In this document: positions 1 to 10,509 of the stretch, in pieces
Numbering within the stretch: position 1 is the stretch's first letter
How the letters are laid out: each line of letters opens with the position of its first letter
Origin: Escherichia coli
Lineage (GTDB): Bacteria; Pseudomonadota; Gammaproteobacteria; Enterobacterales; Enterobacteriaceae
Length of the DNA stretch: 64,000 nucleotides
Assembly (NCBI RefSeq): GCF_013122565.1
Contig: NZ_CP053258.1
Direction: 5' to 3' (one strand)
Program-made: the position numbers and the translations under genes
The notes under the pieces: model-generated
What the model was told of the DNA's origin: nothing
The model's input: only the letters and a program-made list of their open reading frames with translations
Database searches by the model: none

Positions 1-201
1 GCGGATCAGTACGCCGTCTGCCACTAAGTCGCTGATGGCTTTGCGAATGGTAATGCGGCTGACGTTATATTGTGTACAAAGCTCGTTTTCGGTAGGGATC
101 TGTTGCCCGGCCTGGTAAACCCCCTGCGCGATATCATCCAGCAGCCGCTGGCGGACGGTAGCGTAGAGGAGTTGATGAGAGTAGCGGTCCGTAGCTGACA
201 T
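1..201 (-). CDS. frlR: GntR-family transcriptional regulator FrlR, N-terminal 67 codons (gene runs off the window start)
   Basis: Reverse-complement of 1..201 translates in frame from ATG (199..201) as MSATDRYSHQLLYATVRQRLLDDIAQGVYQAGQQIPTENELCTQYNVSRITIRKAISDLVADGVLIR, a GntR winged-helix N-terminus; sits directly downstream of frlD as in the frl operon. Confidence 0.85.
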   Translation of the reverse strand, partial: MSATDRYSHQLLYATVRQRLLDDIAQGVYQAGQQIPTENELCTQYNVSRITIRKAISDLVADGVLIR

Positions 202-3005: not shown

Positions 3006-4394
<1,389 letters not shown>

Positions 4395-5020: not shown

Positions 5021-5048
5021 AAACGAAAAAGGCCAGAATTCTCTGGCC
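5021..5048 (-). terminator. Intrinsic terminator downstream of cysG
   Basis: Stem ggccag/ctggcc (loop aattctc) followed on the minus strand by uuuuucguuu. Confidence 0.7.
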
Positions 5049-5057
5049 CTGATTAAA

Positions 5058-6431
5058 TTAATGGTTGGAGAACCAGTTCAGTTTATCGCGCAGGCCAACA
5101 ACCCGACCAATAATAATTAATGATGGACTGTTCATTTGCTGCGCCAGTTCGCCCAGTTGTGTGAGCGTACCGTCAATCACGCGCTGCGTGACTGCTGTTC
5201 CGTTTTCGACAATTGCCACCGGCATTTCGCCAGGCATACCGTGTTCAATCAGCTTTTGCTGAATGGTCGCGGCCTGATTCAGCCCCATATAGAACACCAG
5301 CGTCTGTTTTTCTGCCGCCAGGTTTTCCCAGTCCAGCTCGCCACCGGTTTTTAAGTGTCCGGTAATTAAGCGTACGCTCTGGGCATAATCGCGATGCGTG
5401 AGCGGAATACCCGAATAGGCAGAGCAACCAGAAGCTGCGGTAATACCCGGAACCACCGAGAACGGAATACCCGCGTTGCACAGTGTTTCCAGCTCTTCGC
5501 CACCACGGCCAAAAATAAACGGATCGCCACCTTTCAGCCGCACCACGCGTTTGCCTTTTTGCGCTTCCCGCAGCAGGATCTGGTTAATCTCTTCCTGCGG
5601 TACGCAGTGGTATCCCGCGCGTTTGCCGACGAAAACGCGATCAGCATCGCGGCGTACCAGATTCATAATATCGTCAGAAACCAGACGGTCGTAGACCACC
5701 ACATCTGCCTGCTGAATTTGTTGCAGACCCTTCAGTGTCAGCAGCCCGGCATCGCCCGGACCTGCACCAACCAGCACCACTTCACCGCGATGGTCGAGCG
5801 GTTCGTTGATTAACTGTTCGGTCGTTTCAGTAATGGCTTTCTGATCGTTGTTTGCCAGCGACTGCGCCAGGCGGTCGTTAACAAACAATTTCTCCCAGAA
5901 ACGGCGACGCTCACCCATCGTGGCGAACTGTTGTTTCACTCGACCGCGTAATTGCCCGGCGTATTTCGCTACCTGGCCCAGATGTAACGGTAGCAGTGAT
6001 TCAAGTTTTTCGCGTAACAGGCGCGCCAGAACCGGAGAGGTCCCGCCAGAGGAGACCGCGACCATTAGCGGTGAGCGGTCAATAATCGACGGCATAATAA
6101 AGCTGGCGGCTTTCGGCGCATCGACCACGTTACAGAAGATGCGACGAGCTTCAGCGGCTTCGCTGACGCGCTGGTTAAGCGCGTCATCATCCGTCGCTGC
6201 AATCGCCAGCCAGCAGGTGTCGAGAAGGCTTTCATCAAATGGCCCTTCGACGAGGGTTAACATGCCTGCATCTGCCCATGCGGTGAACTGTGGAATAAAC
6301 GCTAATGCATTCACCGTTAAGCGAGCACCTGCGTCTAACAGCAACCTTGCTTTGCGTTCCGCGACATCACCACCGCCGACAATCAGACAGTCGCGATCGC
6401 GTAATTGGCAAAATATAGGCAAATGATCCAC
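5058..6431 (-). CDS. cysG: Siroheme synthase (uroporphyrinogen-III methyltransferase / precorrin-2 dehydrogenase / ferrochelatase)
   Basis: 457-aa ORF-track protein; N-terminal Rossmann GGGDVA and C-terminal SUMT methyltransferase region; GTG start. Confidence 0.95.
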
Positions 6432-6449
6432 GTAAAAACCCCTTAGTAA

Positions 6450-7256
6450 TTAACCGGCAGCCGTTTCAGTTTGATTAAATTTGTCCGCAACCGGACGATT
6501 CGCTTTCGGCGTAGCATACCAATAACCCAATCCCATGAATACGGCACCTGATAAAGTATTACCCAGCGTCACCCACAGCAGGTTATGACCAATACCCGCC
6601 AGCGTGTAGGCTTCGCTGTGGTTGCCGAACCAGGAGAGCGCGAACAGCGTCATGTTAGCGATGGAGTGCTCGTAGCCGGACGCGATAAATGCCAGCAGAC
6701 ACCACCAGATTGCGATAAATTTCGCCGCCCCTTCAGTGCGCAGCGCCATCCAGATTGCCAGACAAACCAGCCAGTTACACAATGCACCTTTGAAGAACAG
6801 TACCATTGCCGGCGCAGTGGTTTTAGCCAGCGCGACGGAGTGAACGATGCTGGTATCTACCGGCAGCAGGCTACCGCCACCCCAGCTATAGAGCATGGCA
6901 ACGAAGACGGAACCGACCAGGTTACCCAGCCAGGTTTGCGGCAGGATTGCCCACATTTGCCCGTGGCTGATGGTGCCCGCTTTCACCCCAAAGGTGAGGA
7001 ACATGGTGTGTCCGGTGAACAGTTCAGAACCGGCGATAATCACCAGCGTTAAAGCGATACCAAAGGTCGCGCCCATCACCAAAGGGCGTACGGATGGATC
7101 GAGCAAATTACCGAGCGTAAAAATCAGGATGATCCCAAGACCCACATACGCGCCCGCCATAGCGGAGCTGACCCAAAAGCCGAGCGGGTTATTTGCCGAC
7201 AGGCGTGCAATGCGCGCAGCGTTAGCCGCACACTTATTAATAGTGTCTGTAAACAT
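6450..7256 (-). CDS. nirC: Nitrite transporter NirC (formate/nitrite transporter family)
   Basis: 268-aa ORF-track polytopic membrane protein in the nirBDC-cysG operon context. Confidence 0.95.
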   Translation of the reverse strand: MFTDTINKCAANAARIARLSANNPLGFWVSSAMAGAYVGLGIILIFTLGNLLDPSVRPLVMGATFGIALTLVIIAGSELFTGHTMFLTFGVKAGTISHGQMWAILPQTWLGNLVGSVFVAMLYSWGGGSLLPVDTSIVHSVALAKTTAPAMVLFFKGALCNWLVCLAIWMALRTEGAAKFIAIWWCLLAFIASGYEHSIANMTLFALSWFGNHSEAYTLAGIGHNLLWVTLGNTLSGAVFMGLGYWYATPKANRPVADKFNQTETAAG

Positions 7257-7344
7257 TTGATTATCCTTTAAAAAATAAAAACAAAAAATAAAACAAAAAG
7301 TTTAAAAAATGTCCTGCAATATACCGAAGATTATTACAGGACCA

Positions 7345-7372
7345 TGCAAAAAGGGGAGGCATTGCGCCTCCC
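7345..7372 (-). terminator. Terminator-like hairpin with U-run between nirD and nirC (possible internal attenuator)
   Basis: 7-bp GC-rich stem gggaggc/gcctccc, loop gcaau, followed on the minus strand by cuuuuug and then a roughly 50-nt U-rich tract (7262..7310). Confidence 0.5.
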
Positions 7373-7381
7373 GTTAAAACA

Positions 7382-7708
7382 TTAACCGCGCAGCTGCACC
7401 ACGCCGTCTTTCACTCGCGCTTCGTAATGTTTGACGGAAAACTGTTCGTCTTCCATGCACAAGCCATCACTTAAGCGAAAACGCTGTTTTTTCAGCGGGC
7501 TGGCGACCCACAGCTCGCCCTGGTGTTCCGCAATCAGCCCGCGTGACAGCACGCTGGACTCGAAGAACGGGTCGATGTTGCTGATCGCAAACACCTGGTC
7601 GCTGTGATACGGGCGGAAAATTGCTACCTGCTCGTCACCTAACAGCGCGCAGACGCCGGTTTCAGGCAGGATGTCATCGATTTTGCAGATGTCTTTCCAC
7701 TGGCTCAT
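7382..7708 (-). CDS. nirD: Nitrite reductase (NADH) small subunit (Rieske-like)
   Basis: 108-aa ORF-track protein; start ATG at 7708 overlaps the nirB stop codon. Confidence 0.95.
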   Translation of the reverse strand: MSQWKDICKIDDILPETGVCALLGDEQVAIFRPYHSDQVFAISNIDPFFESSVLSRGLIAEHQGELWVASPLKKQRFRLSDGLCMEDEQFSVKHYEARVKDGVVQLRG

Positions 7709-10248
7709 GCGTTGTCCTCCACCAGAGTTACCGGGATACGTTCATACGGCGTTGCCGGACGGTGCTGTTCGCGCTCTGGCACCATCTGTACGTTCGGGTC
7801 ACGCTTGTCGCTGTTGATGAAGTGTTTGAAGCGAGTCTGCGCAGACGGCGTATTGACCGTTTCAGTCCACTCACACACTACCGCTTCACGCAGGCGCGCC
7901 ATCTCTTCTTCCAGATGTGCGTTCAGCCCCAGTTTGTCGTCAATGATCACCGCTTTCAGGTAATCGATGCCGCCTTCGAGGTTTTCTAACCACGGCGCGG
8001 TACGCGTCAGTTTGTCGGCGGTACGGATGTAGAACATCATGAAGCGGTCGAGATATTTGATCAGCGTTTCGCGATCGATATCCGCCGCCAGCAGATCCGC
8101 ATGACGCGGTTTCATGCCGCCGTTACCGCAAACATACAGGTTCCAGCCTTTTTCGGTGGCGATAATACCCACGTCTTTACCCTGAGCTTCTGAACATTCA
8201 CGGGTACAGCCGGAGACACCGAACTTCATTTTGTGCGGCGTACGGATGCCTTTGTAGCGGTTTTCCAGTTCCACGCCGAGGCCCACGCTGTCGCCCACGC
8301 CGTAGCGGCACCAGGTGCTACCCACGCAGGTTTTCGCCATACGCAGTGCTTTCGCATAGGCATGACCGGTTTCGAAACCGGCTTCAATCAGCTGACGCCA
8401 GATTTCCGGCAGATCGTCTTTCTGTGCGCCAAACATCGCCAGGCGCTGGGAGCCGGTGATTTTGGTGTAGAGATTAAATTCACGCGCGATACGACCCACT
8501 GCCATCAGCCCTTCCGGGGTGATTTCACCGCCCGGAGAGCGCGGGATCACCGAGTAGGTGCCGTCTTTCTGGATGTTAGCGAGGAAGTTGTCGTTAGAAT
8601 CCTGCAGCGGAGTATGTTCCGGCTTCAGAATGTATTCGTTCCAGCAGGAGGCCAGCAACGAACCGACGGTCGGTTTACAAACTTCACAACCGTAACCTTT
8701 GCCGTGTTTCGCCAGCAGTTCTTCGAAGGTTTTAATGCCTTCAACGCGGATCAAATGGAACAGTTCCTGACGCGAATAAGCAAAGTGTTCGCACAGGTTG
8801 TTGTTAACTTCGATGCCCTGTTTCGCCAGTTCCGCGTTCAGTACCTGAGTAACCAGCGGGATACAGCCACCGCAGCCAGTACCCGCTTTGGTTTCGGCTT
8901 TCAGCGCCGCAACGGTGTGACAGCCTTTGTTGATGGCAGCAATCAGATCACCTTTGGTGACGTCGAAGCAGGAGCAGATTTGCGCGCTGTCCGGCAGTTT
9001 ATCAACACCGATAGACGACTTACCGCTACCCGAGTGCGCTGGCAGGATCAGGGAATCCGGGTTTTCCGGCAGCTCGATAGCATTCAGCACCAGTTGCAGC
9101 AGGTTGCCGTAGTCGCTGGTATCGCCCACCAGTACCGCACCGAGCAGGGTTTTGTTGTCTTCGCTGACAATAAGGCGTTTGTAGATCTCTTTGCTTTCGT
9201 CGAGGTAAACGTAGCTACGTGCGCCTGGTGTGCGACCGTGCGCATCACCAATACCGCCTACGTCTACGCCCAGCAGTTTCAGCTTGGCGCTAAGGTCAGC
9301 ACCTTCAAAGGCGTTTTCGCTACCGAGAATATGGTCAACGGCGACCTGCGCCATTTTGTAGCCAGGTGCTACCAGACCAAATACACGGTTGTTCCAGCTT
9401 GCGCATTCACCGATGGCGTAGATATCCGGATCGGAAGTCTGGCAGGAATCATTAATGACAATACCCCCACGCGGAGCTACGTCCAGACCACACTGGGTTG
9501 CCAGCTTATCGCGCGGACGGATACCGGTAGAGAAGACGATAAAGTCGACTTCCAGTTCGCTGCCGTCGGCAAAACGCATGGTTTTACGCGCTTCGACACC
9601 TTCCTGCACAATCTCAAGGGTGTTTTTGCTGGTGTGAACGCGCACGCCCATACTTTCGATTTTGCGACGCAGCTGCTCGCCACCCATCTGATCAAGCTGT
9701 TCCGCCATCAGCATAGGGGCAAATTCGATAACGTGGGTTTCAATACCTAAGTTTTTCAGCGCGCCAGCGGCTTCCAGACCTAACAGGCCGCCACCAACAA
9801 CGGCACCGCGTTTGCTGCGACGGGCGCAGGATTCAATGGCGTTGAGGTCTTCAATAGTGCGATAGACAAAGCAGTCCTGAGTATCAGAACCTTTGATTGG
9901 CGGGATCCACGGGTAGGAACCGGTCGCCATGATCAGCTTGTCATAAAAAACGGTGCGCCCGGCGCTGGAGTGAATCACCTTCTCCTGACGGTTGATGGTG
10001 ATAGCGCGTTCGCCGACCAGAACTTTGATGCCGTGTTTCTCGTAGAAGCCTTCGCGCACCAGCGACAGCTCTTCGGCGGTGTGGTGAGAGAAGTAAGACG
10101 AGAGGTGTACGCGGTCATAAGCGATGCGCGGTTCTTCACAGAAAACGGTAATATCAAAGTTGGCCGCATCAGATTTATCAAGAAGATCTTCGATAAAGCG
10201 ATGGCCGACCATACCGTTACCGATAATTGCGAGTCTGACTTTGCTCAT
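7705..10248 (-). CDS. nirB: Nitrite reductase (NADH) large subunit (FAD/NAD-binding, siroheme/4Fe-4S)
   Basis: 847-aa ORF-track protein; N-terminal AIIGNGMVGHRF dinucleotide-binding motif. Confidence 0.96.
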   Translation of the reverse strand: MSKVRLAIIGNGMVGHRFIEDLLDKSDAANFDITVFCEEPRIAYDRVHLSSYFSHHTAEELSLVREGFYEKHGIKVLVGERAITINRQEKVIHSSAGRTVFYDKLIMATGSYPWIPPIKGSDTQDCFVYRTIEDLNAIESCARRSKRGAVVGGGLLGLEAAGALKNLGIETHVIEFAPMLMAEQLDQMGGEQLRRKIESMGVRVHTSKNTLEIVQEGVEARKTMRFADGSELEVDFIVFSTGIRPRDKLATQCGLDVAPRGGIVINDSCQTSDPDIYAIGECASWNNRVFGLVAPGYKMAQVAVDHILGSENAFEGADLSAKLKLLGVDVGGIGDAHGRTPGARSYVYLDESKEIYKRLIVSEDNKTLLGAVLVGDTSDYGNLLQLVLNAIELPENPDSLILPAHSGSGKSSIGVDKLPDSAQICSCFDVTKGDLIAAINKGCHTVAALKAETKAGTGCGGCIPLVTQVLNAELAKQGIEVNNNLCEHFAYSRQELFHLIRVEGIKTFEELLAKHGKGYGCEVCKPTVGSLLASCWNEYILKPEHTPLQDSNDNFLANIQKDGTYSVIPRSPGGEITPEGLMAVGRIAREFNLYTKITGSQRLAMFGAQKDDLPEIWRQLIEAGFETGHAYAKALRMAKTCVGSTWCRYGVGDSVGLGVELENRYKGIRTPHKMKFGVSGCTRECSEAQGKDVGIIATEKGWNLYVCGNGGMKPRHADLLAADIDRETLIKYLDRFMMFYIRTADKLTRTAPWLENLEGGIDYLKAVIIDDKLGLNAHLEEEMARLREAVVCEWTETVNTPSAQTRFKHFINSDKRDPNVQMVPEREQHRPATPYERIPVTLVEDNA

Positions 10249-10349: not shown

Positions 10350-10509
10350 TATTGCTGATTTGTATAAATTTTCTTAAGTCACGGAATTGTCTGACATTTC
10401 ATGTTTGTGCAAAAAATAGACAAAATGAACGGGTTTACAGAAATAGATGCACGTAGCGGGGTAAGAGAGGAAAAGGCCGGACGACGATAGTGCCGTCCGG
10501 CATGAGCAA

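Follow-up and report, generated by a model that had tools for sequence, protein, structure and literature searches.

Terminators that act only in part are found within operons, as in the rplL-rpoB attenuator and the internal terminator of rpsU-dnaG-rpoD, where partial readthrough leads to unequal expression of the genes upstream and downstream. The closest described relative of the element considered here is in Salmonella enterica, where Wang et al. 2020 (Wang, Chao, Matera, Gao and Vogel; Nucleic Acids Res 48:2126; PMC7038943) report an "intra-operonic terminator" after nirD, consisting of a stem-loop of -14.9 kcal/mol and a uridine track. Its deletion lowers the nirBD transcripts and raises nirC-cysG, and in northern blots a full-length RNA of 5.4 kb appears weakly beside a 2.8-kb nirBD RNA and a 2.5-kb nirC-cysG RNA. 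According to the same study, the nirC 5' ends all lie within a uridine-rich stretch beginning at the nirD stop codon and are processed ends only, with no primary nirC 5' end recovered by RACE, and inactivation of RNase E removes the nirC-cysG form. The small RNA NarS derives by cleavage from the narK 3' UTR and pairs with the nirC Shine-Dalgarno sequence in a duplex of 14 bp, for which seed mutants were used and which E. coli RIL-seq supports; deletion of the element reduces NarS repression from ~30-fold to ~5-fold, and the U-track is required for control by NarS, possibly through Hfq binding to it. The authors regard termination, a stabilised cleaved fragment, or both as compatible with their data (PMC7038943).

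Also treated by Wang et al. are iscRSUA/RyhB and glmUS/GlmZ, in which, as at nirD, an sRNA binds inside a polycistronic message and a 3' stem-loop lets the upstream fragment survive; a REP-like structure protects iscR in the former, and RNase E processing precedes sRNA action in the latter (PMC7038943). The protecting structure at nirD differs from that of iscRSUA in being a terminator hairpin and not a REP element. With canonical Rho-independent terminators the nirD element shares a G+C-rich stem-loop that lies close behind a stop codon and leads directly into a U-run. What sets it apart from them is its link to processing by RNase E and the fact that an sRNA requires it to control the gene downstream, as described for Salmonella (PMC7038943).

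Here we describe the nirD-nirC junction of E. coli within a window, by which we mean the whole stretch of DNA that was analysed, 64,000 nucleotides in length; its features are collected in Table 1. We consider it likely that the junction carries the E. coli copy of the same intra-operonic Rho-independent terminator, ending the nirBD part of the nirBDC-cysG transcript. The element is real and, having been published in 2020 for its Salmonella orthologue, already known; a literature search on 'nirE' and on nirD with a terminator in E. coli returned nothing beyond Wang et al. 2020. What is added here is that a second hairpin is Escherichia-specific and covarying, and that the U-rich tract before nirC is a length-variable (U5R)n repeat.

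Table 1. Coordinates of genes and RNA features around the nirD-nirC junction of the window.
Feature	Position	Strand	Remarks
nirB	7705..10248	minus	
nirD	7382..7708	minus	ORF and E. coli genome annotation
nirD stop codon, UAA	7382..7384	minus	9 nt 5' of hairpin 1
nirD-nirC spacer	7257..7381	minus	125 nt
Hairpin 1, GGGAGGC-GCAAU-GCCUCCC	7354..7372	minus	Found by terminator scan; stem-loop of the probable intra-operonic terminator after nirD
Terminator 1 U-run, CUUUUUG	7347..7353	minus	U5 at 7352..7348
Hairpin 2, GUCCUGUAAUA...UAUUGCAGGAC	7311..7342	minus	In both MFE and centroid folds
AUUUUUU	7304..7310	minus	Directly 3' of hairpin 2; may serve a second terminator as its U-run
U-rich tract, 32/41 U (78%)	7270..7310	minus	Degenerate hexanucleotide repeat (U5R)n, unstructured
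NarS sRNA pairing site	7255..7269	minus	Covers nirC Shine-Dalgarno AAAGGAUAAUCAAAU and first two bases of AUG
nirC	6450..7256	minus	Start codon 7254..7256; ORF and annotation
Rho-dependent termination region peak	7228	minus	K-12 3497031(+); 29 nt into nirC; coarse, 800-nt windows
cysG	5058..6431	minus	

The region is present in 5,425 of 5,426 complete E. coli genomes, with nirB, nirD, nirC and cysG annotated. Window positions 7240..7400 (161 nt, spanning the spacer) are 100% identical to K-12 MG1655, with the nirC ATG at K-12 3497003 corresponding to window 7256, and the MG1655 annotation has no feature inside the nirD-nirC spacer. In transcript orientation, from 5' to 3', the spacer consists of UGUUUUAAC, hairpin 1, CUUUUUG, CAUG, hairpin 2 (GUCCUGUAAUAAUCUUCGGUAUAUUGCAGGAC), the U-rich tract (AUUUUUUAAACUUUUUGUUUUAUUUUUUGUUUUUAUUUUUU), and AAAGGAUAAUCAA-AUG. 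The folding energy of the sense strand is -35.7 kcal/mol (z = -4.07), which none of 200 shuffles equals, and the antisense strand has a z of -1.47 only. G.U pairs in hairpin 2 and in the closing pair of hairpin 1 can form in the sense RNA only, which indicates a feature of the RNA and not a DNA palindrome.

The hairpin and the CUUUUUG that the preliminary description had placed after the nirD stop codon are both present as described. Hairpin 1 has a folding energy of -13.6 kcal/mol, a stem of 7-8 bp with six G-C pairs and a loop of 3-5 nt, as expected of the stem-loop of an intrinsic terminator, and five of the first seven nucleotides 3' of the stem are U, as expected of its U-run. In a terminator scan of 7 kb the top three sites were hairpin 1, a tsgA site (10501..10476) and a cysG site (5050..5029), each directly 3' of a stop codon. 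Over both strands of the 64 kb there are ~13 distinct hairpin-plus-T-run sites, hairpin 1 among them, and nested counts of such sites came to 25, against 3.0 +/- 2.2 in local shuffles; the 19-mer of hairpin 1 is unique within the window even when up to three mismatches are allowed. By a rough terminator d-score, which was computed with modern energy parameters and ranks hairpins relative to each other only, the E. coli hairpin 1 is about equal to the cysG and tsgA terminators and lies below the Salmonella and Klebsiella copies. A bidirectional terminator was considered and rejected, because the plus strand has no U-run 3' of either hairpin.

Conservation of the element was followed in 80 NirD-encoding loci from species-representative genomes, from which the spacers were extracted. 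Hairpin 1 and its U-run are kept in Escherichia, Salmonella, Citrobacter, Klebsiella, Leclercia, Silvania, Kosakonia, Siccibacter and others, at 3-10 nt from the nirD stop codon in all loci with a member of the hairpin 1 family, and a few genomes that have lost nirC retain the hairpin. When 45 loci (40 distinct sequences) are aligned, 97-100% of the sequences form the core pairs, with compensatory changes of GC to CG (seven), AU to GC (ten) and CG to UG (eight); the covariation value is 0.254 compared to 0.164 in shuffles, none of 500 of which was as high, and it far exceeds that of any slid register. The GCAA of the loop (7362..7365; columns 21-24 of alignment A2) is at least 90% conserved among the 40 distinct sequences, in contrast to several pairs of the stem, which covary; such conservation of the loop is above what a plain terminator would lead one to expect.

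The sequence 3' of hairpin 1 is not conserved between genera, apart from the Shine-Dalgarno box AGGATAATCA. REP/BIME-like palindromes are found there in Citrobacter, and an ERIC-like element in Salmonella arizonae and several others. The interval between hairpin 1 and the nirC Shine-Dalgarno sequence appears as a landing site for repeat elements (REP/BIME-like and ERIC-like, recognised by eye) in spacers of 67 to 402 nt from Citrobacter, Salmonella, Phytobacter and Kosakonia (L007-L028, L059, L064, L067). Another set of loci, from Enterobacter, Kluyvera, Pseudocitrobacter, Trabulsiella and others, lacks nirC, so that nirD is followed by cysG after about 135-150 nt (L030-L036, L041-L043, L045, L046, L049-L052, L054-L058, L061, L070, L076); most of these have a different hairpin after nirD, GCCTTTTC-AATA-GGAAAGGC. 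In L022 and L029 only a 3' nirC fragment is left.

The E. coli and Salmonella elements lie in the same position between the same genes, 9 nt and 8 nt after the nirD stop codon, respectively, and 18 of the 19 hairpin nucleotides are identical in E. coli and in S. enterica arizonae and diarizonae, one loop base differing (U vs C). The S. arizonae hairpin folds at -14.8 kcal/mol, reproducing the published energy, and is preceded by the TTAATT motif mentioned in PMC7038943, which identifies it as the hairpin of Wang et al. Position and homologous sequence thus agree, and the 45 loci form a continuous series of intermediates, as expected of orthologues. Both species also have the conserved NarS site, which lies on the Shine-Dalgarno sequence of nirC. 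In E. coli, narS 144..158 (K-12, b4813) is a perfect 15-nt complement of window 7255..7269, as expected of a NarS target. The K-12 narS gene itself appears to contain an ERIC-like insert, and a 170-nt insertion is mentioned in the literature.

There are also several differences. The terminator 1 U-run has five U in E. coli and six to eight in Salmonella, Citrobacter and Klebsiella (6+7 U in Salmonella), the E. coli spacer is 125 nt without an ERIC-like insert whereas that of Salmonella is about 200 nt, and hairpin 2 with its own U6 is an addition of E. coli. The 41-nt (U5R)n tract of E. coli abuts the NarS site, whereas the U-track of Salmonella is about 200 nt upstream. Functional tests of the element all come from Salmonella, and the E. 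coli copy is known by its sequence, folding and transcript coverage.

Coverage across the junction is available from K-12 DirectRNA-seq in LB (Adams et al. 2021; PMC7815308, supplementary file 2), evaluated in 800-nt windows. Reads fall 24-fold, from 586 upstream to 24 downstream, and 6-fold, from 920 to 149, in the presence of the Rho inhibitor bicyclomycin (PMC7815308). This pattern fits a Rho-independent block with a Rho-dependent component. Coverage at the junction is far from equal, and together with the effect of the deletion on the Salmonella orthologue (PMC7038943) the fall supports the proposal of the preliminary description that an internal attenuator holds nirC and cysG below nirBD. 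The Term-seq tables of Adams et al. 2021, from LB and M63 cultures with poor expression of the operon, contain no 3' end at K-12 34968xx-34970xx; since these cultures were aerobic, the absence counts only weakly against a terminator. The table of Yan 2018 has no nir entries.

On the opposite strand, Adams et al. 2021 (PMC7815308) list a Rho region at the nirD 3' end (K-12 3496855 minus, about 6600..7404 on the window plus strand), where reads drop from 262 upstream to 12 downstream, or from 405 to 66 in the presence of bicyclomycin, which means that an antisense RNA spans nirC, passes the spacer and ends shortly after entering nirD. The plus strand has a promoter-like site at 6755..6783, and on it both hairpins lack a U-run.

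The Rho-dependent component raises the question of whether the hairpin is incidental, with a long untranslated spacer and weak nirC translation leading mainly to Rho-dependent polarity and a stop early in nirC. The Rho region itself, with a Rho score of 3.95 and p = 6e-12 at its peak 29 nt into nirC (K-12 3497031; PMC7815308), speaks for such polarity. A 6-fold fall that persists with Rho inhibited and the covariation of hairpin 1 speak against it. Typical Rho loading sites are C-rich, whereas the spacer is very C-poor, with 1 C in the 41-nt tract. We regard polarity as an unlikely main cause.

A second alternative is that hairpin 1 is a stability element only: polymerase would read through, RNase E would cut in the U-rich spacer, and the hairpin would block 3'-to-5' exonucleases such that nirBD accumulates without termination. 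The processed nirC 5' ends and the RNase E-dependent nirC-cysG form of Salmonella (PMC7038943) speak for this; the nine matches to the RNase E-type motif RNWUU in the E. coli spacer, seven of them in the U-rich tract, and the short E. coli U-run also agree with it. However, the rise of nirC-cysG upon deletion in Salmonella (PMC7038943) is predicted by the loss of termination and not obviously by the loss of an upstream stabiliser, and the G+C-rich stem is kept across genera together with an immediate U-run, which an exonuclease barrier alone does not need. We therefore hold stability without termination to be possible though doubtful. The Salmonella deletion data and the E. coli coverage data are each compatible with termination or with RNase E processing plus 3'-end protection, and the terminator reading that we prefer has points against it in the short E. 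coli U-run (5 U, with a C first) and in a coverage drop that is partly Rho-dependent.

The U-rich tract is the most T-biased 41-mer of the 64 kb (32 T on the transcript strand); the highest T count among plus-strand 41-mers is 25, and other A-rich windows of at least 28 appear to overlap the tract. The preliminary description had about 50 nt of almost pure A/U directly after CUUUUUG. The extreme bias and a near-pure A/U run are there, and the string quoted for it, aaaaaataaaaacaaaaaataaaacaaaaag, is found at 7270..7300 within the 7262..7310 given, but the run is about 41-44 nt long and is separated from CUUUUUG by ~37 nt that include hairpin 2, which that description had overlooked. The long U-rich tract is a separate part and not the tail of the terminator: it is a putative processing or Hfq zone beside the NarS site.

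Tandem repeat analysis (TRF) of the tract gives a period of 6 with 4.8 copies and a period of 12 with 2.4 copies (94% matches), the (T5R)n repeat running at 7270..7299 with 4.8 copies. In E. coli 04-00955 (NZ_CP035498.1; L087 152..216) there are 10.8 copies of TTTTTA, so that the distance from hairpin 2 to the Shine-Dalgarno sequence of nirC is 36 nt longer. This argues that the length of the tract is not tightly constrained; it probably grows by slippage. A 241-nt search placed eight genomes at 80-90% identity and 51 at 90-95%, bands that make other tract length variants probable. T makes up at least 50% of the 40 nt 5' of the Shine-Dalgarno sequence in 29 of 51 loci and less than 35% in 14 of 51, the latter mostly loci with an adjoining ERIC-like element, and a U-rich leader is therefore common across genera and not obligatory.

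The preliminary description had also suggested that the A/T tract may be curved DNA or an UP-like element of an internal nirC promoter. Its extreme A/T richness is suggestive, and by eye an extended -10-like string (TGTAATAAT) and TATATT can be seen within hairpin 2. A scan of the minus strand of the spacer yields no sigma-70-like site, the T-runs are ~6-7 nt apart (range 5.5-9.5; spectral peaks 6.5-7) without an outstanding 10.5-nt periodicity, and the tract lies downstream of the -10-like strings where an UP element would be upstream. The strings are lost in the second Escherichia allele though the pairing is kept, which argues against a promoter, as do the strand-specific bias (U on the mRNA), the difference in tract length between strains and the 14 of 51 genomes with less than 35% T at its position. 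The nirC 5' ends of Salmonella are, moreover, processed ones, with no primary end by RACE (PMC7038943). We do not retain the suggestion, and consider an internal promoter of this kind very unlikely.

Hairpin 2 has a folding energy of -13.5 kcal/mol on the sense strand and -9.7 on the antisense strand, where it is weaker because of its U.G pair. The terminator scan, whose loop limit is 3-8 nt, did not call hairpin 2 with AUUUUUU, presumably because the perfect-stem version needs a loop beyond that limit. Among 11 Escherichia sequences 90.9% of cells are paired and three pairs are changed on both sides. Two alleles of the hairpin occur, with compensatory changes between their stems, for example G:C to A:U at the stem base; support from covariation is modest, because the changes trace to only two or three events. 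Outside Escherichia the hairpin is absent, with REP/BIME or ERIC-like inserts at the same spot. A dispersed repeat of the REP/BIME or ERIC type was itself tried as an identity for hairpin 2 and rejected: it is found at a median of one place per genome in the 5,425 E. coli genomes (E-value limit 10), and a single-copy sequence is not a REP. It would be either a further terminator-like stem-loop, in tandem with the first, or a structure that protects a 5' end, and it may compensate for the short U-run of terminator 1 in E. coli.

It has to be considered whether both hairpins belong to a stable small RNA, similar to sroE, that is cut from the nirD 3' end. An Rfam scan of 6000..9000 (E <= 10) returned sub-threshold matches only, sroE at 22 bits and IsrM at 19 bits, and the former (7303..7382 minus, E = 0.06) is the evidence for such an RNA. 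The gathering score of sroE (RF00371) is 51, and the match is weak enough for a chance resemblance between segments of hairpin plus U-run. Hairpin 2 is missing outside Escherichia, and Term-seq of aerobic K-12 has no 3' end at the junction, so that we find an sroE-like RNA extremely improbable.

The spacer also contains an ORF of 33 codons from ATG to stop (minus strand 7261..7362; MPPLFAWSCNNLRYIAGHFLNFLFYFLFLFFKG) with GGAGG 4 nt 5' of the ATG, which we take to be, probably, the historical 'nirE', and which would encode a small hydrophobic protein. This 'nirE' is said (Peakman in 1990, Harborne in 1992) not to be translated. Its ATG lies in the loop of hairpin 1, the GGAGG that resembles a Shine-Dalgarno sequence is part of the stem, and the Phe/Leu-rich product is a mere translation of the U-rich repeat. 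In E. albertii the ORF is cut to 6 aa, and a further Escherichia allele has 19 aa. In place of the ATG, the Salmonella loci and most of those from Citrobacter have ACG; neither the length nor the sequence of the ORF shows a relationship between genera, and the ORF is unannotated in K-12 and other RefSeq genomes. With neither start codon nor frame conserved in relatives, 'nirE' was rejected as a gene, and a protein encoded in the spacer is scarcely credible. In Klebsiella grimontii (L021; 67-nt spacer, 3328..3394) an ORF from the hairpin-loop ATG is in frame into nirC, which is probably coincidence.

Taken as the terminator that we prefer, the element could operate in E. coli as follows. A polymerase leaving nirD would make hairpin 1 and U5, and some polymerases would stop there. 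RNase E would cleave the readthrough transcripts within the spacer, which is U-rich and untranslated, and hairpin 1 would then keep exonucleases away from the 3' end of the nirBD fragment. The nirC-cysG fragment would then begin with a U-rich leader, a likely Hfq site, directly 5' of the Shine-Dalgarno sequence, where pairing of NarS would block translation. The net effect would be that nirC, and cysG as far as it is driven by the nirB promoter, are expressed below nirBD and that nirC can be regulated separately.

On a more speculative level, which we rate as rather unlikely, the Escherichia junction may have been rebuilt as a tandem device, with a weakened terminator 1, a covarying hairpin 2 with U6, and a slippage-prone (U5R)n beside the NarS site; hairpin 2 would be a back-up terminator or a 5' cap-like stabiliser of the processed nirC-cysG mRNA, and repeat number would tune output. 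If so, changes in copy number such as that from 4.8 to 10.8 could tune Hfq/NarS control and the output of nirC-cysG.

Read as a terminator, the element would set the dose of NirC, the nitrite transporter, and of nirB-promoter-driven CysG, the siroheme synthase, relative to the nitrite reductase NirBD, and would let NarS silence nirC alone during nitrate respiration, a logic published for Salmonella (PMC7038943). The value of the present analysis is that the orthologous element is confirmed at the E. coli locus and that the features which distinguish Escherichia, hairpin 2 and the length-variable U-rich repeat, are recorded.
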